Shown here in pieces: positions 2,359-22,489 of a DNA stretch of 64,000 nucleotides. The notes under the pieces were generated by a model. That model saw nothing but the letters and a program-made list of their open reading frames with translations, did no database searches and was not told the origin of the DNA. Origin of the DNA: a virus; IMG/VR virus record IMGVR_UViG_3300021962_000073, positions 13,978-77,977 of that record; one strand, written 5' to 3'. The position numbers and the translations under genes are program-made. Every line of letters begins with the position of its first letter. Position 1 is the stretch's first letter.

Positions 2359-2432
2359 TGGGGTATGGTGAAATGGCATCACACTCGATTTTGATTCAAG
2401 TATTCTTGGTTCGATTCCAAGTACCCCTGCCA
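2359..2432 (+). tRNA. tRNA-Gln(TTG)
   Basis: Cloverleaf, anticodon loop TT-TTG-AT, T-loop TTCGATT, encoded CCA. Confidence 0.9.
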
Positions 2433-2439
2433 AAATTTA

Positions 2440-2532
2440 GGAAGTGTGGCAGAGCCCGGTTTAATGCAATGCTCTTGAAAAGCATCGGACGTTAAAAGCG
2501 TTCCGTGAGTTCGAATCTCACCGCTTCCACCA
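2440..2532 (+). tRNA. tRNA-Ser(TGA)
   Basis: Loop CT-TGA-AA, long variable arm, CCA. Confidence 0.92.
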
Positions 2533-2540
2533 AATTTAAT

Positions 2541-2632
2541 GGAAAGATGGATGAGTGGTTTAAATCGGCACCCTGCTAAGGTGTTGGTTTGCGAAAGCAG
2601 GCCCGTGGGTTCGAATCCCACTCTTTCCACCA
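2541..2632 (+). tRNA. tRNA-Ser(GCT)
   Basis: Loop CT-GCT-AA, long variable arm, CCA. Confidence 0.92.
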
Positions 2633-2638
2633 AACAAT

Positions 2639-2733
2639 GGTAGGTAGCACTGGTGTGCGGCTGAGTCTTATAAGCTCGGGAGATCGGTCAGATGGGCTGA
2701 AACGGAAGAGTTCGAATCTCTTACCTACTACCA
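2639..2733 (+). tRNA. non-canonical tRNA with TAT anticodon (tRNA-Sec/allo-tRNA-like fold)
   Basis: GGTAGGT/ACCTACT acceptor, D-arm GCAC-TGGT-GTGC, 6-bp anticodon stem with loop CT-TAT-AA, long V-arm, TTCGAAT, ACCA. Confidence 0.7.
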
Positions 2734-2740
2734 AATTCAT

Positions 2741-2818
2741 GCACAGGTGGCAGAGTGGCCCAATGCAAGAGTCTGCAAAACTCTAAAACCGTCGGTTCGA
2801 ATCCGACCCTGTGCTCCA
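2741..2818 (+). tRNA. tRNA-Cys(GCA)
   Basis: Loop CT-GCA-AA, U73 discriminator, CCA. Confidence 0.92.
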
Positions 2819-2875
2819 GTTGTAAAAAAACAACAACAAAAAAGTTGTTGACATAGTTTGTGGAATCTGTATAAT
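2819..2875 (+). promoter_or_regulatory. internal sigma70-type promoter with upstream GTTG-N8-CAAC box
   Basis: GTTG-TAAAAAAA-CAAC 2819-2834; TTGACA 2848-2853, 16-nt spacer, TATAAT 2870-2875. Confidence 0.8.
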
Positions 2876-2896
2876 AGATTCTGTTGATGATGTAAA

Positions 2897-2908
2897 TGCT
2901 CTTTAAAA
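2897..2908 (+). promoter_or_regulatory. boxA-like antitermination element
   Basis: TGCTCTTTAAAA between the promoter and tRNA-Glu. Confidence 0.7.
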
Positions 2909-2921
2909 ACTGTTGTTCGAT

Positions 2922-2996
2922 GCACCGTTCGTCTATCGGTTAGGACGCTAGCCTTTCACGCTGGAAAGACGAGTTCGATTCTCGTACGGTGTACCA
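2922..2996 (+). tRNA. tRNA-Glu(TTC)
   Basis: Loop CT-TTC-AC, CCA. Confidence 0.92.
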
Positions 2997-3128
2997 TATT
3001 GAAACACACTTACACTGTGGCGCTTTGTCCGTCCCTGGTTTAAAACGGGATATCGCATAAACAGTTCAAGCCCCGGTCGCTCCGGTCTGCTGTGTAAAAG
3101 AGAGACGGTCGAGTGTGTTTCAATATGG
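2994..3128 (+). ncRNA. stem-enclosed ncRNA cassette 1 (unknown)
   Basis: Perfect 17-bp closing stem CCATATTGAAACACACT/AGTGTGTTTCAATATGG around about 100 nt with internal hairpins. Confidence 0.6.
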
Positions 3129-3202
3129 GCCTATAGCTCAGAGGTCAGAGCAGTGAACTCATAATTCATTGGTCGTAGGTTCGAAACCTACTGGGCCCAC
3201 CA
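3127..3202 (+). tRNA. tRNA-CAT (Ile2 or Met)
   Basis: Loop CT-CAT-AA; GGGCCTA acceptor is Ile2-like. Confidence 0.88.
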
Positions 3203-3208
3203 AAATTC

Positions 3209-3282
3209 GCGGGTATAACTTAGTGGTAAAGTAACTGGCTTTTAACCAGTAAATCCGAGTTCGATTCTCGGTGCCCGTACCA
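3209..3282 (+). tRNA. tRNA-Lys(TTT)
   Basis: Loop CT-TTT-AA, CCA. Confidence 0.92.
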
Positions 3283-3287
3283 AATAT

Positions 3288-3374
3288 GGATGCGTAGCCA
3301 AATGGTTGACGGCAGCGGGCTGTAAACCCGTGACATAAGAAACGCTGGTGGTTCGAATCCATCCGCATCCACCA
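3288..3374 (+). tRNA. tRNA-Tyr(GTA)
   Basis: Loop CT-GTA-AA, extended variable region, CCA. Confidence 0.92.
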
Positions 3375-3383
3375 AGTTTAGAT

Positions 3384-3459
3384 GGGGGTCTAGCGAGTAA
3401 CATCGCTCAGTCTTAAACGACAGCAAAAGAATGTCGAGAGGACATCCAATTGCGCCCCT
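3384..3459 (+). ncRNA. possible small multi-stem RNA
   Basis: GGGGT/GCCCC closing stem with hairpins AGCGA/TCGCT, GTC/GAC and ATGTC/GACAT; no T-loop or CCA. Confidence 0.35.
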
Positions 3460-3464
3460 TAATC

Positions 3465-3539
3465 GGTTCCATAGTATATCGGCGAGTATAGCGCCCTGTC
3501 ACGGCGCAGGAACGGGTTCGAGTCCCGTTGGGACCGCCA
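3465..3539 (+). tRNA. tRNA-Asp(GTC)
   Basis: Loop CT-GTC-AC, G73, CCA. Confidence 0.92.
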
Positions 3540-3545
3540 GAATGA

Positions 3546-3621
3546 TCCGGAGTAGCACAGCGGTAGTTGCAGCGCACTGTTAATGCGCCTGTCGTTGGTT
3601 CGATCCCAACCTCCGGAGCCA
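3546..3621 (+). tRNA. tRNA-Asn(GTT)
   Basis: Loop CT-GTT-AA, CCA. Confidence 0.92.
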
Positions 3622-3623
3622 AA

Positions 3624-3700
3624 GCCCTCTTACTCCAATTGGTAGAGAGGACGGTCTTAGAAGCCGTAAAGTCTCAGTTCGAATCTGAGAGAGGGCACCA
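3624..3700 (+). tRNA. tRNA-Leu(TAG), short variable arm
   Basis: Loop CT-TAG-AA, only about 5 nt of variable region, CCA. Confidence 0.85.
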
Positions 3701-3822
3701 TATTGAAATATTCTGAGTAGCTACAGCGGAACAACTGATTGCTTGCCAATTCTAGACAAAGCAAGGATCAGCCGTGAAGAGGGGCTATCGCGGATTCAAG
3801 TGCCACAGAATGTTTCAATATG
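3699..3822 (+). ncRNA. stem-enclosed ncRNA cassette 2 (homologous to the tmRNA intervening segment)
   Basis: 17-bp closing stem 3699-3715/3806-3822; cargo shares sequence and covarying stems with 21658-21753. Confidence 0.75.
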
Positions 3823-3823
3823 A

Positions 3824-3945
3824 CCATATTGAAGCGCATAATCGATAGTATACTCAGAACAGGAGTGACTGCCTGGTGCGTATACTTGTAGAGAGATGTA
3901 AAAAGGCCCCGCTGGTCACGGTTATCTCAGTGCGTTTCAATATGG
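3824..3945 (+). ncRNA. stem-enclosed ncRNA cassette 3 (unknown)
   Basis: 15-bp closing stem CCATATTGAAGCGCA/TGCGTTTCAATATGG; internal AGTATAC/GTATACT and GAGAT/ATCTC stems. Confidence 0.6.
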
Positions 3946-3959
3946 TTCTGCAAAATTGA

Positions 3960-4080
3960 TGATGGCAAATCCGCCCAACCATCAGGGCGACTACTTAACC
4001 CTATTGAACGTCTTGCCAACGAGGAGTGGAGAATAGGGGAGTCCAAGAGGACTCTTAAACGGGTGATGGTAACCATACCT
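3960..4080 (+). ncRNA. possible structured RNA with pseudoknot potential
   Basis: CGCCC/GGGCG, CCCTATT/AATAGGG and GAGTCC/GGACTC stems; loop ACCATCA is complementary to TGATGGT 4064-4070. Confidence 0.45.
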
Positions 4081-4084
4081 TTTC

Positions 4085-4162
4085 GGGCCTCTAGCTCATG
4101 TTGGTTAGAGCAGCGAACTCATAATTCGTTGGTGCGCGGTTCGACTCCGCGGGGGCCCACCA
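4085..4162 (+). tRNA. tRNA-CAT (Ile2 or Met)
   Basis: Loop CT-CAT-AA, CCA. Confidence 0.88.
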
Positions 4163-4175
4163 TATATAATGTATT

Positions 4176-4250
4176 GGGCTGCTAGTGATAATGGGAGCAC
4201 GCCGCCTTTGCACGGCGGAGGTTGGAGTTCGATCCTCCAGCGGTCCACCA
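4176..4250 (+). tRNA. tRNA-Ala(TGC)
   Basis: Loop TT-TGC-AC, G3:U70 pair, CCA. Confidence 0.92.
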
Positions 4251-4258
4251 AGTTTTTC

Positions 4259-4333
4259 GCCCCTATAGTTAAATGGCTATAACAGTTGCCTTGTAAGCAT
4301 CAATTCCTAGTTCGATTCCAGGTGGGGGCACCA
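4259..4333 (+). tRNA. tRNA-Thr(TGT)
   Basis: Loop CT-TGT-AA, CCA. Confidence 0.9.
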
Positions 4334-4340
4334 AGTTTTA

Positions 4341-4418
4341 CCGAGTGTAGGATAGTCCGGTTATTCCGCCTGCTTTGGGAGCAGGAAATCGTGTGTTCGA
4401 ATCACACCACTCGGACCA
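4341..4418 (+). tRNA. tRNA-Pro(TGG)
   Basis: Loop TT-TGG-GA, C1:G72, CCA. Confidence 0.92.
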
Positions 4419-4426
4419 GTTTCTAT

Positions 4427-4505
4427 TCCGCAGAACCCGAGCAAGGTGCATGGGCTTGACTGTTAATCAATGGTTAGCAGGGTTCGATTCCCTGATGCGG
4501 AGCCA
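4427..4505 (+). tRNA. second, atypical tRNA-Asn(GTT)
   Basis: Loop CT-GTT-AA; unusual D-arm and 7:66 mismatch; CCA. Confidence 0.75.
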
Positions 4506-4513
4506 ATTTCAGA

Positions 4514-4587
4514 TGCGGGTTGGAGAAAAGGTATCTCGGGAGTCTCATAAGCTCCAGTTGGTGGTTCGATTCCATCATCCGCTACCA
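4514..4587 (+). tRNA. tRNA-CAT, initiator (fMet)-like
   Basis: 1:72 mismatch (T:T), loop CT-CAT-AA; anticodon stem GGAGT/GCTCC. Confidence 0.8.
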
Positions 4588-4593
4588 AGTTAC

Positions 4594-4668
4594 GGTTCAA
4601 TGACGTAGAAAGATGCGTACCGGTTTCATAAGCCGAGGAGAGTGGAGCGTTACCACTTTGAACCACCA
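4594..4668 (+). tRNA. tRNA-CAT with atypical T-loop
   Basis: GGTTCAA/TTGAACC acceptor, loop TT-CAT-AA, T-loop AGCGTTA, CCA. Confidence 0.75.
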
Positions 4669-4677
4669 GGAGATATT

Positions 4678-5418
4678 ATGAATATTGACGAAATTGTTAA
4701 AGTACCATATACAACACAACCAAGAATGATACGAAATACTGGTGAAGTTTTTAATAAAACTCCCGATAAAAAATATTTTGAAGAGAAGAAAATTCAATTA
4801 GATAAATTTGGTTATGATTTGTATGGTATGAATATACCTTGCATTACAGAAAAAGTTATTGAAAAATGTGAATCTTTTTTAGGTAAACCTGTAACTGGTG
4901 ATATCGTAGATTTCGCAATGAACTTTGAAGAAGATATTGCGATTATGCACCATGGTGTTTTGTCTGCAATTTGTTTTTGTTTTCCCAGTTCTTGGATTCC
5001 TTTTTACGGTCTAGACAAAACACTGGAAGAAATACACCGACCTGTGGCTGATGGTGATCATCTTCGGCGTGTAAGTTCGAAACTTACAAAGACAATGGCA
5101 GATCCTATTCTAGGAAGTTTTCTTAGATATGTATGGACTATTACAAAAGTTCCAGATTTAAGTAATCATCCTGAAGTAAAACAAAATTATGATGATGCAG
5201 AATTAACATTCGATAATCTCTATTTTAGATTGGAGAAACAAACAACATTACCATTGAATGATGGTAAGACTAGTTTGTTTTTTGTGAAAGTTGAAGTTGT
5301 TCCATTAAAAAATGTTTGGTCACCACTAATTAAAGAGAGTATTGATTCTATGAGTGATGCGATTATTCAATATAAAAATTTAAAAGAAATTAAAACGGTC
5401 CTTAGTTCAATGGATTAG
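4678..5418 (+). CDS. DUF3445 / heme-dependent oxidative N-demethylase alpha-subunit-like protein
   Basis: CFPSSW...IHRPV...LYFRLEKQT...LFFVKV motifs; ATG 4678 after SD AGGAG; stop lies inside tRNA-Arg. Confidence 0.75.
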   Translation: MNIDEIVKVPYTTQPRMIRNTGEVFNKTPDKKYFEEKKIQLDKFGYDLYGMNIPCITEKVIEKCESFLGKPVTGDIVDFAMNFEEDIAIMHHGVLSAICFCFPSSWIPFYGLDKTLEEIHRPVADGDHLRRVSSKLTKTMADPILGSFLRYVWTITKVPDLSNHPEVKQNYDDAELTFDNLYFRLEKQTTLPLNDGKTSLFFVKVEVVPLKNVWSPLIKESIDSMSDAIIQYKNLKEIKTVLSSMD

Positions 5419-5471
5419 AATCCCTTGCTACGAACGAGGAGACGGGAGTTCGATTCTCTCAGGACCGGCCA
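5396..5471 (+). tRNA. tRNA-Arg(ACG)
   Basis: Loop CT-ACG-AA, CCA; overlaps the 3' end of the upstream CDS. Confidence 0.88.
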
Positions 5472-5476
5472 ATTAT

Positions 5477-5551
5477 GCCCCGTTAGCTGAGATGGATTAG
5501 CAACGTCTTGATAAGGCGTAGAGAATGGATCGATACCATTACGGGGTACCA
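5477..5551 (+). tRNA. tRNA-Ile(GAT)
   Basis: Loop TT-GAT-AA, variant T-loop ATCGATA, CCA. Confidence 0.85.
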
Positions 5552-5556
5552 TCAAT

Positions 5557-5631
5557 CTCGGTGTAGTGTTAATGGCAGCACGAGAGTCTCCAAAACTCCA
5601 AGATGCGGTTCGAGTCCGTACACCGAGGCCA
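5557..5631 (+). tRNA. tRNA-Trp(CCA)
   Basis: Loop CT-CCA-AA, G73, CCA. Confidence 0.9.
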
Positions 5632-5648
5632 TTTTATAGGAGTGAGAT

Positions 5649-6119
5649 ATGTACAACAAAAAAATTAATTTAAATGAAGTGAAAGCATTCATCGATAGTT
5701 GTGGTCCTAATACCAAAGTTTATCTTGGATGCGATTCTGAGAAAGTTAAAATTAATGGTGTATGGCATGCGGATTATATTATAGCCATTGTTGTACATAT
5801 GAACAGCAAGCATGGTTGTAAAATTTTCGGTCAAATTACTCGTGAACGTGATTATGACCAAGCACGAAATAAACCAAGAATGCGATTGATGAATGAAGTA
5901 TATAAAGTTGCCGAGATGTATCTTGAATTAGCGGCAATGATTGATGTTGAAATTGAAGTTCATCTTGACATCAATCCAAATGAAGAGTATAATTCAAATA
6001 TTGTAATCAATGAGGCGATTGGCTACATAAAAGGAATGTGTAATGTTGTTCCTCTTGTAAAACCAAATGCTTTTGCGGCTTCATATGCAGCCGATAGATT
6101 GAAAAGTTTAGTAGCTTAA
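5649..6119 (+). CDS. RNase H-like YkuK family (DUF458) protein
   Basis: VYLGCDS...EVHLDIN...KPNAFAASYAAD motifs. Confidence 0.85.
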   Translation: MYNKKINLNEVKAFIDSCGPNTKVYLGCDSEKVKINGVWHADYIIAIVVHMNSKHGCKIFGQITRERDYDQARNKPRMRLMNEVYKVAEMYLELAAMIDVEIEVHLDINPNEEYNSNIVINEAIGYIKGMCNVVPLVKPNAFAASYAADRLKSLVA

Positions 6120-6121
6120 TT

Positions 6122-6198
6122 GCGGGTATGGTGTTTAATGGCTAGCACGACAGCCTTCCAAGCTGACAGTATCGGTTCGAATCCGATTACCCGCTCCA
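6122..6198 (+). tRNA. tRNA-Gly(TCC)
   Basis: Loop CT-TCC-AA, U73, CCA. Confidence 0.92.
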
Positions 6199-6215
6199 TA
6201 TTTTTATATAAATGA

Positions 6216-6752
6216 ATGGAACTTAAATCTTTTGTCAAACATTATGAAAATGTATTGAGCCCCCAAACTTGCGAACGAATAATCCAAGAATTTGAGAACA
6301 ATCGTTCACATATCACTCAATACGATAATGAGCATTACAAGTTTGATCAGTTAGATTTAAATACATCTGGCAATCAACTTTTAGCGAAAGCATTTATACA
6401 ACAGGTCGTACCATATCTGAAAAATTATATTAGTTTGTTGAGTGTTGAACCTTATGTTAAGATTCGAGGTTTTGAAAATGTACGCATCAAAAAATATCTG
6501 AAAGGATCAGATTATAAATTCAAAACTCATGTTGATGTTGATGATAAAGATTCGGCAGTTCGATATTTGATTTTTATTTTGTATTTAAATGATAACAATG
6601 GATGTACAACTTTTCCTAATCTAGGATTGTCTTTCAAACCAAAACAAGGAAGTATGATTATGTTTCCTCCGTTTTGGATGTTTCCTCATTCAGGTGAAAC
6701 ACCGACAGACAATGATAAGTATATTATGATGAGTTGTCTTCACTATAGTTAA
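6216..6752 (+). CDS. 2OG-Fe(II) oxygenase (prolyl 4-hydroxylase-like)
   Basis: HVD...LYLND...FPPFWMFPH...KY facial-triad pattern. Confidence 0.85.
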   Translation: MELKSFVKHYENVLSPQTCERIIQEFENNRSHITQYDNEHYKFDQLDLNTSGNQLLAKAFIQQVVPYLKNYISLLSVEPYVKIRGFENVRIKKYLKGSDYKFKTHVDVDDKDSAVRYLIFILYLNDNNGCTTFPNLGLSFKPKQGSMIMFPPFWMFPHSGETPTDNDKYIMMSCLHYS

Positions 6753-6753
6753 A

Positions 6754-6843
6754 GCAGGAGTGGAGAAATCGGTAAACTCAGTGGACTTAAAATCCACCGG
6801 CACTAAAAACGCCTTGCGGGTTCAAGTCCCGCCTCCTGCACCA
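6754..6843 (+). tRNA. tRNA-Leu(TAA)
   Basis: Loop CT-TAA-AA, long variable region, CCA. Confidence 0.92.
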
Positions 6844-6847
6844 CAAC

Positions 6848-6922
6848 CTGACCGTAGTTAAATGGATATAACATGGGTCTTCTAAACCCAGATTCCAGGT
6901 TCGATTCCTGGCGGTCGGGCCA
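6848..6922 (+). tRNA. tRNA-Arg(TCT)
   Basis: Loop CT-TCT-AA, CCA. Confidence 0.92.
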
Positions 6923-21383: not shown

Positions 21384-21572
21384 ATGTGGGTTTGGATATT
21401 ATCCATCACATTATTAGGTACCAATCCTGAACATTCAAGAATCGCTAAATTTGAGACTAAAGAAGATTGTCAGAAAGCACTGATTGCTAAAAGAAAAGAA
21501 TATGAACTAAAAGGTAGAGAAATGGTTGGTCATTGTTTTTATGGAAGAACAGATTCTAAAGGTTGGTGGTAA
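21384..21572 (+). CDS. small hypothetical protein
   Basis: 62 aa, hydrophobic N-terminus, F.TKEDC motif. Confidence 0.6.
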   Translation: MWVWILSITLLGTNPEHSRIAKFETKEDCQKALIAKRKEYELKGREMVGHCFYGRTDSKGWW

Positions 21573-21584
21573 TAAATAAAGCTA

Positions 21585-21931
21585 TGATCGTATGAAGTAG
21601 ATCGAAAGGTGTTCTGGACGGCGGTTCGATTCCGCCCAGGTCCACCAGTAAACTCTTTGAGTGACTACACTGGAACAACTGCAACACTTGCCAAAGTCGA
21701 CTAAAGCAAGAACCAGCCAGGAAGTAGGGTCACCGTGATTTCGAGTATCGCAGAGAGTTTACTAATGGGCCTGACCTGGTTTCGACAGGGCAATAAGTAG
21801 AGACATGGACGATCCGACACAGAGAGTCGTAAAAAGTAAATTCAATAAACGCAAATGAAGAAATCTTTGCATTAGCCGCCTAAACACGGCTTAGGGTTTC
21901 GGTGGGTTTCCTCGTAACAGAATAACCCACC
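21585..21931 (+). ncRNA. ssrA: circularly permuted (two-piece) tmRNA
   Basis: Acceptor piece with T-arm and CAGGTCC-ACCA ending 21647; coding piece starts GGGCCTG 21767 (G3:U70); tag ANEEIFALAA* 21851-21883; AATAAATA upstream. Confidence 0.9.
21648..21766 (+). ncRNA. structured RNA cargo in the tmRNA intervening segment
   Basis: 13-bp closing stem AGTAAACTCTTTG/CAGAGAGTTTACT; cargo homologous to 3714-3808. Confidence 0.7.
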
Positions 21932-21952
21932 ATCACTACTAGGAGGTATCAA

Positions 21953-22489
21953 ATGAAAAGTTTAACTTTTCTTAGTGTGATTTTTTTTATGCTTATAGTG
22001 AAAAACGTTTACGCTATACCAAATACGATTCTCTTCAGGGATCTTACCGCAGAAGCGCAGAAGCAGGTCGTATGTTTAGCAGATAACATCTATTTTGAAG
22101 CAGCCAGCGAATCTCATAACGGCAAAATGGCTGTTGGATTTGTCACACTAAATCGCGTTTCAACAGGAAACTATCCAAATACAGTTTGCGGAGTTGTACA
22201 TCAAAAGATAAGAGGAATTTGTCAATTTTCTTGGTATTGTGATCCAACCACTGCTAAGAAAAGGTTGACAATAAGATCCACTTCATTGTATAATGATATC
22301 TTGGATTTGGCAGTGTTTCTTGCGGTTTATTATCATTTTATAGAAGATGTTTCCAAAGGAGCCACACATTTTCATTCCGTCAGAGTTAATCCGAGATGGA
22401 AATTACAAAAAACTAGTCAAATAGGACAACACATATTTTATAGAAATAGATACGAAAGAATTAATAAAGAAAAATTTATTTTGGCATAA
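21953..22489 (+). CDS. cell wall hydrolase (SleB/Hydrolase_2)
   Basis: CLADNIYFEA, V.LNRV, YPNTVCGVV.Q, CQFSW, GATHFH, IGQHIFY. Confidence 0.9.
   Translation: MKSLTFLSVIFFMLIVKNVYAIPNTILFRDLTAEAQKQVVCLADNIYFEAASESHNGKMAVGFVTLNRVSTGNYPNTVCGVVHQKIRGICQFSWYCDPTTAKKRLTIRSTSLYNDILDLAVFLAVYYHFIEDVSKGATHFHSVRVNPRWKLQKTSQIGQHIFYRNRYERINKEKFILA

Follow-up and report, generated by a model that had tools for sequence, protein, structure and literature searches.

A phage RNA family new to Rfam from tRNA arrays and tmRNA genes, with a self-complementary apical loop predicted to form a kissing dimer

The 64 000-nucleotide (nt) stretch of viral DNA analysed here (positions 13 978–77 977 of the 78-kb IMG/VR record IMGVR_UViG_3300021962_000073, which is estimated to be 48% complete; hereafter the window) carries two copies, A and B, of an RNA element of ~115–125 nt. 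The element belongs to a family that is new to Rfam and is carried by T4-like freshwater phages; this is almost certainly a genuine family of structured RNAs. The centre of its apical loop is self-complementary, and the pattern of sequence variation makes it very likely that this loop pairs with that of a second copy in a kissing homodimer. What is new is the RNA family; recent precedent exists for the principle, that of a phage RNA from a transfer RNA (tRNA) island whose symmetric kissing loop covaries. The explanation that we favour as a whole, with moderate confidence, is a small stand-alone noncoding RNA that would be released with the maturation of tRNA and transfer-messenger RNA (tmRNA) and would dimerize; that it acts in trans is speculative.

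A sequence-only reading of the window, made without database searches, had pointed to two stretches that are alike over ~95 nt and had listed their common blocks. Alignment of the two copies confirms this (Table 1): the AACAA bulge, GAAG and UUCRAGU are common to both, and the covariation claimed for helix P2 (GUAGCU/GGCUAU in copy A and GUGACU/GGUCAC in copy B) is found at its coordinates. Both apical loops are indeed 14 nt long, have the form CAA-N8-AAA and hold different palindromes in the same register. The covariation of P3 also stands; its length does not, as the helix was given 3 base pairs (bp) and really has 4, GCGG/CCGU in copy A versus CUGG/CCAG in copy B. The covarying closing stem (P1), the tRNA and tmRNA context and the cassette nature of the element had been overlooked. 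The outer stems of copies A and B are unrelated in sequence; in copy A the core of the closing stem (3701–3715/3806–3820) can be extended by pairing C3699 and A3700 with U3821 and G3822. A covariance model built from eight copies (R1) scores both window copies at ~121 bits, with E ~1e-27.

Table 1. Coordinates of the two copies, their surroundings and related features (window numbering, except for the GOLLD matches)
Feature	Position	Strand	Details
Copy A, whole element	3699–3822	+	Adopts the consensus fold; covariance-model match 3703–3820, 121.1 bits
Copy A, P1	3699–3715/3806–3822		17 bp
Copy A, P2	3717–3722/3783–3788		
Copy A, P3	3726–3729/3772–3775		
Copy A, AACAA bulge	3730–3734		
Copy A, P4	3735–3739/3767–3771		
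Copy A, P5	3742–3746/3761–3765		
Copy A, apical loop	3747–3760	+	14 nt, CAAUUCUAGACAAA; UCUAGA 3751–3756, proposed kissing site
Copy A, T-arm-like hairpin	3790–3806	+	Stem 3790–3794/3802–3806; 7-nt loop UUCAAGU 3795–3801
Copy B, whole element	21648–21762	+	Folds; covariance-model match 21647–21765, 120.6 bits
Copy B, P1	21648–21659/21751–21762		12 bp
Copy B, P2	21661–21666/21728–21733		
Copy B, P3	21670–21673/21717–21720		
Copy B, bulge	21674–21678		
Copy B, P4	21679–21681/21714–21716		
Copy B, P5	21687–21691/21706–21710		
Copy B, apical loop	21692–21705	+	14 nt, CAAAGUCGACUAAA; palindrome AGUCGACU 21695–21702, (A)GUCGAC(U); hexamer 21696–21701
Copy B, T-arm	21735–21751		
tRNA-Leu (anticodon UAG)	3624–3700	+	ARAGORN, Rfam tRNA; encoded CCA 3698–3700 abuts copy A
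Permuted (two-piece) tmRNA gene	21555–21974	+	Tag ANEEIFALAA; ARAGORN; RF01850 132.8 bits, RF04321 126.3 bits
Module C	3823–3946	+	124 nt; 16-bp stem ACCAUAUUGAAGCGCA (3823–3838)/UGCGUUUCAAUAUGGU (3931–3946); z −4.7
Module D	2994–3128	+	~130 nt, tRNA-Glu/tRNA-Met gap; 18-bp stem CCAUAUUGAAACACACUU (2994–3011)/GAGUGUGUUUCAAUAUGG (3111–3128); z −4.7
GOLLD match	L022 7832–8292	−	RF02032
GOLLD match	L116 1–439	−	RF02032
GOLLD match	L111 6809–7272	−	RF02032

The element had not been recognized as a known ribozyme or riboswitch, and Rfam 15 agrees. A scan of the window with its 4227 models at the gathering thresholds, among them hammerhead, twister, pistol, hatchet, hepatitis delta virus (HDV)-like, YrlA, packaging RNA (pRNA), manA, GOLLD and ROOL, returned the tRNAs and the tmRNA only and left both copies unassigned; at E ≤ 10 the regions 3690–4090 and 21645–21768 gave noise only (CRISPR-DR6 at 14 bits and HOTTIP at 2.8 bits). 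When both loci were compared by BLASTN with 50 697 phage records, the matches were confined to the tRNA and tmRNA sequences at their flanks, so that no cultured relative is available, and a literature search of limited reach found no published description of the family. Relatives were collected by scanning IMG/VR, JGI/ENA metagenome contigs and GTDB genomes with degenerate patterns made from the invariant blocks; members were told from chance coding matches by eye and then by R1. These collections are searchable by exact patterns only, which biases the sample towards the conserved blocks in the patterns, and more divergent members have probably been missed. The bases of the palindrome were in no pattern; the first and third patterns were anchored on the P5 hairpin strand(s) and on the CAA of the loop.

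Beyond the window copies R1 matches 69 instances, 54 of them distinct, at 77–142 bits on virus and freshwater metagenome contigs, and two more, truncated, matches score below this range. The suggestion that the element represents a phage family is thus borne out, the homologues being confined to phage or metagenome DNA. The GTDB scan gave a single match, on a 2.6-kb contig that is binned as Bifidobacterium and has the phage layout promoter–tRNA-Leu–element; the contig is probably misbinned, and the same pattern scan found no element in bacterial tmRNA genes. The related virus records are all fragments, 8–80% complete.

Across the 54 distinct sequences 94.5% of the cells pair, compared with 82% in shuffles and 31–49% when the partners are slid against each other. 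Compensatory (two-sided) changes are present in 23 of the 32 pairs of the nested model, and none of 500 shuffles attains any of the five structure measures. All ten modelled P1 pairs covary and mutual information extends the stem outward; P1 is 12–17 bp long in the window copies and ranges from ~9 to ~20 bp in relatives. P2, P3 and P5 covary, with P5 occurring as CUUGC/GCAAG, CUUAC/GUAAG, CCGGU/GCCGG and CUUCC/GGAAG, while P4 (CUG/CAG) is invariant. An invariant U–G pair and switches from G–U to C–G fit only the tRNA-sense strand, which is therefore taken as the strand of the RNA. P1 opens into a three-way junction whose two branches are the long arm P2–P3–P4–P5 and a tRNA-like T-arm; the long arm holds an invariant unpaired ACA, the AACAA bulge and a GAAG-rich strand. 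The invariant unpaired blocks (CUACA, GGAACAACUG, CAGCC..GA..AG, GGG and UUCAAG) suggest a tertiary fold. Two further readings of the fold were rejected: copy B, with GAAGUAG, is incompatible with a k-turn in the ACA/GAAGAG internal loop, and P5 covaries while the T-loop stays unchanged, which speaks against an alternative in which the CAAG of the T-loop pairs with CUUG of P5.

A compact multi-helix fold with many invariant unpaired nucleotides, lying directly 3′ of an encoded CCA, could also be that of a self-cleaving ribozyme that removes the 3′ trailer from the tRNA or tmRNA acceptor piece upstream. HDV-like ribozymes have been reported behind gut-phage tRNAs. We consider this very improbable for the present element: it has no Rfam ribozyme match even at E ≤ 10, its covariation-supported fold is fully nested and lacks an HDV-type double pseudoknot, and a stem of ~9–20 bp separates the core from the CCA junction, which a fixed active site could not reach. 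Transesterification would in addition leave a 2′,3′-cyclic phosphate on A76 and so block aminoacylation, and a ribozyme would leave the palindromic loop unexplained.

That the loop stays palindromic among homologues, as a kissing interaction would lead one to expect, was found to be the case: a perfect palindrome of at least 6 nt occupies loop positions 5–10 in 47 of the 51 full-length distinct sequences, while composition-matched shuffled loops contain one in 14% of cases on average and in 31% at most. The hexamers are UCUAGA (29 or 30 sequences), GUCGAC (13) and, in one sequence each, UCCGGA, GACGUC, UGCGCA and AACGUU. Among the loops that are not perfect, two sequences have GCGC and one (L118) has UCUAGG, which is self-complementary with G–U pairs. 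All three symmetric position pairs of the palindrome vary. Across the whole alignment mutual information peaks (1.10) at loop columns 52 and 57, the outer positions 1 and 6 of the palindrome; these are Watson–Crick in 98% of the sequences, with three pair types. Hexamer positions 1–6, 2–5 and 3–4 are too close together to pair inside a single chain, so the constraint has to act between molecules; only some of the UCUAGA variants could form an intraloop mini-hairpin, UCU-AGAC-AGA. A self-complementary centre and covariation that preserves its symmetry are the marks of a symmetric kissing loop, and from them a physical dimer is predicted. The same argument from loop symmetry has been made for OLE L9.3 and GOLLD L21a, where it was confirmed by cryo-electron microscopy (Kretsch et al. 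2025, PMC12286853).

Read as DNA, the variants are all classical 6-bp palindromes (TCTAGA, GTCGAC, TCCGGA, GACGTC, TGCGCA and AACGTT), and the element does change loci; the palindrome might then be the site of a dimeric protein, an endonuclease or a recombination system that moves the cassette, with RNA pairing being incidental. A protein site would be expected to keep its sequence, whereas here the symmetry is kept through six different sequences. The palindrome is, moreover, always central in the apical loop of a hairpin with compensatory changes in P5, its flanks are asymmetric (CAAU... versus ...CARA), and the UCUAGG of L118 is self-complementary as RNA only. We give a DNA-level signal very little credence.

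Nearest-neighbour energies of the loop–loop duplexes are −6.6 kcal/mol for A–A, −12.7 kcal/mol for B–B and −3.4 kcal/mol for A–B; by this calculation copies A and B should not cross-pair. The idea of two paralogues with orthogonal loops therefore holds, as computed, for the window phage. Among the virus records searched whole it is peculiar to this phage: all 14 others have one copy.

The second branch of the junction gives the element its likeness to tRNA. The T-arm continues straight into the 3′ strand of P1, as a tRNA T-arm continues into the acceptor stem, and its loop, UUC(A/G)AG(U/C), is nearly invariant. The two central pairs of the arm are paired in 98% of cases and switch from G–C to A–U; the loop-closing pair is mostly A–G or A–A. 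Some members have a canonical T-arm (GUGAG-UUCAAGU-CUCAC in L052 and UGGG-UUCGAUY-CCCA in L090 and L092). The hairpin that was earlier described as T-loop-like is, as a helix, only moderately supported. The likeness to tRNA is limited to the T-arm, and identity with tRNA was rejected: neither ARAGORN nor RF00005 calls either copy, the three-way junction has no D-arm or anticodon arm, and the closing stem, with 12–17 bp here and up to ~20 bp in relatives, exceeds the 7 bp of an acceptor stem.

A T-arm with UUCRAGY that runs into the closing stem, in an RNA located in tRNA islands, would also be expected of a degenerate tRNA or tmRNA pseudogene, or of a tRNA mimic of the Y-RNA (YrlA) type that acts with a Ro60/Rsr protein; Y-RNAs, too, have a long stem in which the 5′ and 3′ ends pair. 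These origins are highly improbable. The Rfam tRNA, tmRNA and YrlA models and ARAGORN leave the element uncalled, it has neither of the other two tRNA arms, and a pseudogene would hardly show the strong purifying selection and covariation that are seen among 54 variants. For a Y-RNA, the TROVE domain is absent from five incomplete records totalling ~570 kb.

The window comes from a T4-like phage, as indicated by the neighbouring proteins gp32, gp59, PhoH and 2OG-Fe(II) oxygenases, and the stretch has been detected in freshwater, lake, estuary and marine metagenomes (15 studies). ARAGORN places 24 tRNA genes at 2359–6922 of the window, in agreement with Rfam, and copy A directly follows one of them. 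In the intervening segment of the permuted tmRNA gene the RF01850 and RF04321 models skip a 113-nt insert, and this insert is exactly copy B: the acceptor piece ends in ...UCCACCA, with its CCA at 21645–21647, and the coding piece begins with GGGCCUG from G21767, so that its 5′ end lies four bases past the closing stem of copy B. No open reading frame (ORF) of at least 80 amino acids in the window overlaps copy A or copy B, and no promoter signal of its own was found for the kissing-loop RNA gene.

The two contexts recur throughout the family. Of the 69 matches, 14 form the intervening segment of a tmRNA gene and 36 have a tRNA on the same strand no more than 13 nt away; most of the remainder are in tRNA-rich DNA or on short contigs. 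The upstream tRNA may be Lys, Leu, Thr, Tyr or Arg and the downstream tRNA Met, Gly, Cys, Asn or Arg; as the partners vary on both sides, the element has no fixed tRNA partner. Array copies start right after the CCA of one tRNA and stop 0–13 nt before the next. The upstream CCA usually pairs with a UGG just past the element (CCAUAUA...UAUAUGG), and the GG of this pairing is often formed by the first two bases of the next tRNA. In two loci (L126 and L062) the spacer of the permuted tmRNA lacks the element and the tRNA array holds a copy instead. Their tmRNA genes (L126 4381–4765 and L062 7282–7529) have a different spacer of ~85 nt or less, from which we conclude that spacer content has been swapped between lineages.

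Copy A is followed directly by a further structured segment, Module C, which begins with its own ACCA and has a core unrelated to that of copy A. The syntenic locus L048 has no Module C; there the element is followed immediately by a homologue (93% identical) of window positions 3948–4084. Another segment, Module D, has copies that are 82% identical to it ~105 nt downstream of the kissing-loop element in three loci (L091, L114 and L128), and is probably a second uncatalogued RNA family. Copy A, Module C and Module D have in common a framing helix, CCAUAUUGAA.../...UUCAAUAUGG, around unrelated cores; the possibility that the two modules are divergent members of the family was rejected, as R1 matches neither. 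The element itself combines a long terminal helix with sites in both tmRNA spacers and tRNA gaps and with presence or absence between related phages, as a cassette would. Because it is placed in both contexts and shares its frame with other cores, we regard it as one cargo of a cassette system: it looks like a swappable small-RNA cassette for which the gaps of the tRNA array and the tmRNA spacer are interchangeable.

The precision of this placement raises the question of whether the element does all its work in cis, as a processing or insulator module whose closing stem presents the ends of its neighbours to RNase III, RNase E or RNase P, whose core aids the folding of the precursor or attracts a processing enzyme by way of the tRNA-like T-arm, and whose excised piece is waste. 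The element begins exactly at the CCA and ends 0–13 nt before the 5′ end of the next tRNA; in the tmRNA gene it fills a segment that must be removed; its framing helix is common to three unrelated modules of the window array; and the T-arm, stacked on P1, is reminiscent of the tRNA upper half recognized by RNase P. For such a role the stem alone would suffice, yet ~45 unpaired or invariant core positions and the self-complementary loop are conserved across the 54 sequences. Neither the tmRNA genes of L126 and L062 nor most tRNA junctions of the same arrays have the element, and the ~9 to ~20 bp of P1 hold the core at no fixed distance from the cleavage sites. We therefore judge a purely cis-acting module to be unlikely, if the least unlikely of the alternatives considered here.

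The stand-alone RNA that we favour would arise as follows. The element would be transcribed inside stable-RNA units, behind a tRNA CCA or as a tmRNA intervening segment, and would be excised from the precursor as a by-product of tRNA or tmRNA maturation. Permuted tmRNA transcripts are cut by tRNA-processing enzymes (PMC11915505). An RNase P cut at the downstream 5′ end may define the 3′ side of the element; upstream, an endonuclease cut in or beside P1 could be followed by 3′ exonucleolytic trimming to the CCA. Candidate nucleases are RNase III for the framing helices of ~17–22 bp and RNase E for their A/U-rich ends. The closed stem that is left over would protect the product, and a discrete stable RNA is probably released. 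Two such molecules would pair tip to tip through the 6-nt palindrome, giving a symmetric homodimer with a module like a tRNA elbow at each end; the UCUAGA copy and the GUCGAC copy would each pair only with their own kind. In trans the dimer might serve, speculatively, as a scaffold or as a decoy for a factor that recognizes the upper half of tRNA.

Any particular function in trans is doubtful at this point. One quite unlikely but specific version is that an RNA-only homodimer, or a larger assembly if there is a second interface, shows two tRNA-elbow mimics at a fixed spacing and so captures or blocks a host factor that reads tRNA. This factor might be a processing or modification enzyme, or a defence nuclease directed against tRNA, and the different palindromes would then be 'addresses' that guard against mixing between co-resident or co-infecting versions. 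On this version the element would be the first RNA of the GOLLD and ROOL kind with an assignable function.

Several observations weigh against a dimerizing, trans-acting RNA. Taken as a free duplex, the UCUAGA kissing interaction is weak (−6.6 kcal/mol); in one locus (L084) the loop is swapped for a 30-nt insert free of any palindrome, and three of the 51 full-length sequences have just 4-nt or wobble palindromes. As these sequences deviate, pairing is not absolutely required. The T-arm-like helix is paired in only 70% of the cells of the 54 sequences. The sole hint of expression is one X17 contig of a relative's element, which could be DNA carry-over. No protein partner came to light: the five largest records (~570 kb) contain neither TROVE nor SmpB, but as fragments they are uninformative on this point. 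RtcB is found in one of the five (G005, 238 kb); the L084 element, at 3998–4132, lies in this same record. When four metatranscriptome runs were compared with positions 3400–4300 the contigs covered tRNAs, possibly those of other organisms, and 3741–4081 was uncovered; contigs show neither ends nor abundance, and the uncovered interval carries no conclusion.

In kind, the closest known systems are GOLLD and ROOL and the kissing hairpins of the dimerization initiation site (DIS) type; in position, they are the T4 RNAs rnaC and rnaD and tmRNA spacers that carry cargo. Like the element, GOLLD and ROOL are phage or prophage RNAs that frequently lie near tRNA islands (PMC12286853). GOLLD, ROOL and OLE self-assemble without protein through kissing loops, which for the element are predicted, and the symmetric loop L9.3 of OLE covaries between GGCC, GAUC and AGCU, the same signature as that seen here (PMC12286853). 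They differ in being 500–800 nt or longer compared with ~120 nt, and have no likeness to the element in sequence or fold; they assemble through many interfaces into cages of 8–14 subunits or into large dimers, whereas the element has one evident interface. In the DIS of human immunodeficiency virus 1 an apical loop has a central 6-nt palindrome with unpaired purine flanks, and natural variants have GCGCGC or GUGCAC. The element shares the palindrome-bearing loop and the swapping of palindromes; its loop is 14 nt rather than 9 nt, and it is a discrete RNA of a DNA phage, while the DIS belongs to retroviral genomic RNA and serves genome packaging; the two are not homologous.

T4 rnaC and rnaD (species 1 and 2; NC_000866 70908–71171) are 119–139 nt long and, like the element, lie in a T4-type tRNA cluster. 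rnaD begins one base after tRNA-Arg, the same layout as that of copy A, and rnaC holds a T-arm-like hairpin, as the element does. Homology was rejected: with filters off, R1 scored 9.5 bits at best in NC_000866 68000–76000, and this outside rnaC and rnaD. These T4 RNAs show neither a long closing stem nor a palindromic loop, and we regard them as analogous and not homologous. Copy B is itself a permuted-tmRNA intervening sequence (Keiler, Shapiro and Williams 2000, for such genes), bounded by the encoded CCA on one side and by the start of the coding piece on the other. Such sequences are typically short and unconserved, whereas copy B is conserved and covarying and has relatives outside tmRNA genes. 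One tmRNA intervening sequence with an intact tRNA-Ala and another with a repeat element have been described (PMC11915505). The pRNA of the phi29 family is also a ~120-nt phage RNA; its 5′ and 3′ ends form a helix, and it has a three-way junction and intermolecular loop–loop pairing that covaries (PMC4201828). It differs in having two different loops, in forming rings on the packaging motor and in belonging to small Bacillus podoviruses; the single self-complementary loop of the element implies a dimer, its carriers are T4-like and it has no Rfam match.

Phage tRNA islands are emerging as nurseries of self-assembling RNAs, of which GOLLD and ROOL are large and hard to manipulate. If the favoured explanation is right, the element would be their minimal, tractable counterpart in kind. 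With a size of ~120 nt, a clean fold, one predicted interface and at least six 'specificity' variants, it opens the connection of RNA self-association with phage biology to direct tests by short transcripts and exchanged loops. The 'discarded' tmRNA spacer and the gaps of phage tRNA arrays would likewise be interchangeable expression sites for small RNAs that genome annotation has overlooked.

Other features were noted in and around the tRNA array of the window. The ORF at 5649–6119 (+) matches PF04308 (RNaseH_like, E 1e-17) and is possibly an RNA-processing enzyme; beside it are a HODM_asu-like protein (4642–5418) and a 2OG-Fe(II) oxygenase (6216–6752). The inter-tRNA gaps 3372–3467 and 2816–2924 fold better than shuffles (z ~−2.3 each); the framing helix is absent from both, and the loci retrieved for the family contain no homologue of either. 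GOLLD RNA has no match in the window. In three of 23 loci scanned, it (RF02032, 194–213 bits; Table 1) lies on the same strand as the element and 70–580 nt from it. In one common type of array (L008, at ~3530–3740, and its relatives L088, L097, L110 and L125) a conserved stretch of ~210 nt that follows tRNA-Thr precedes the element; this stretch, which has no tRNA or Rfam call, may be another small RNA.

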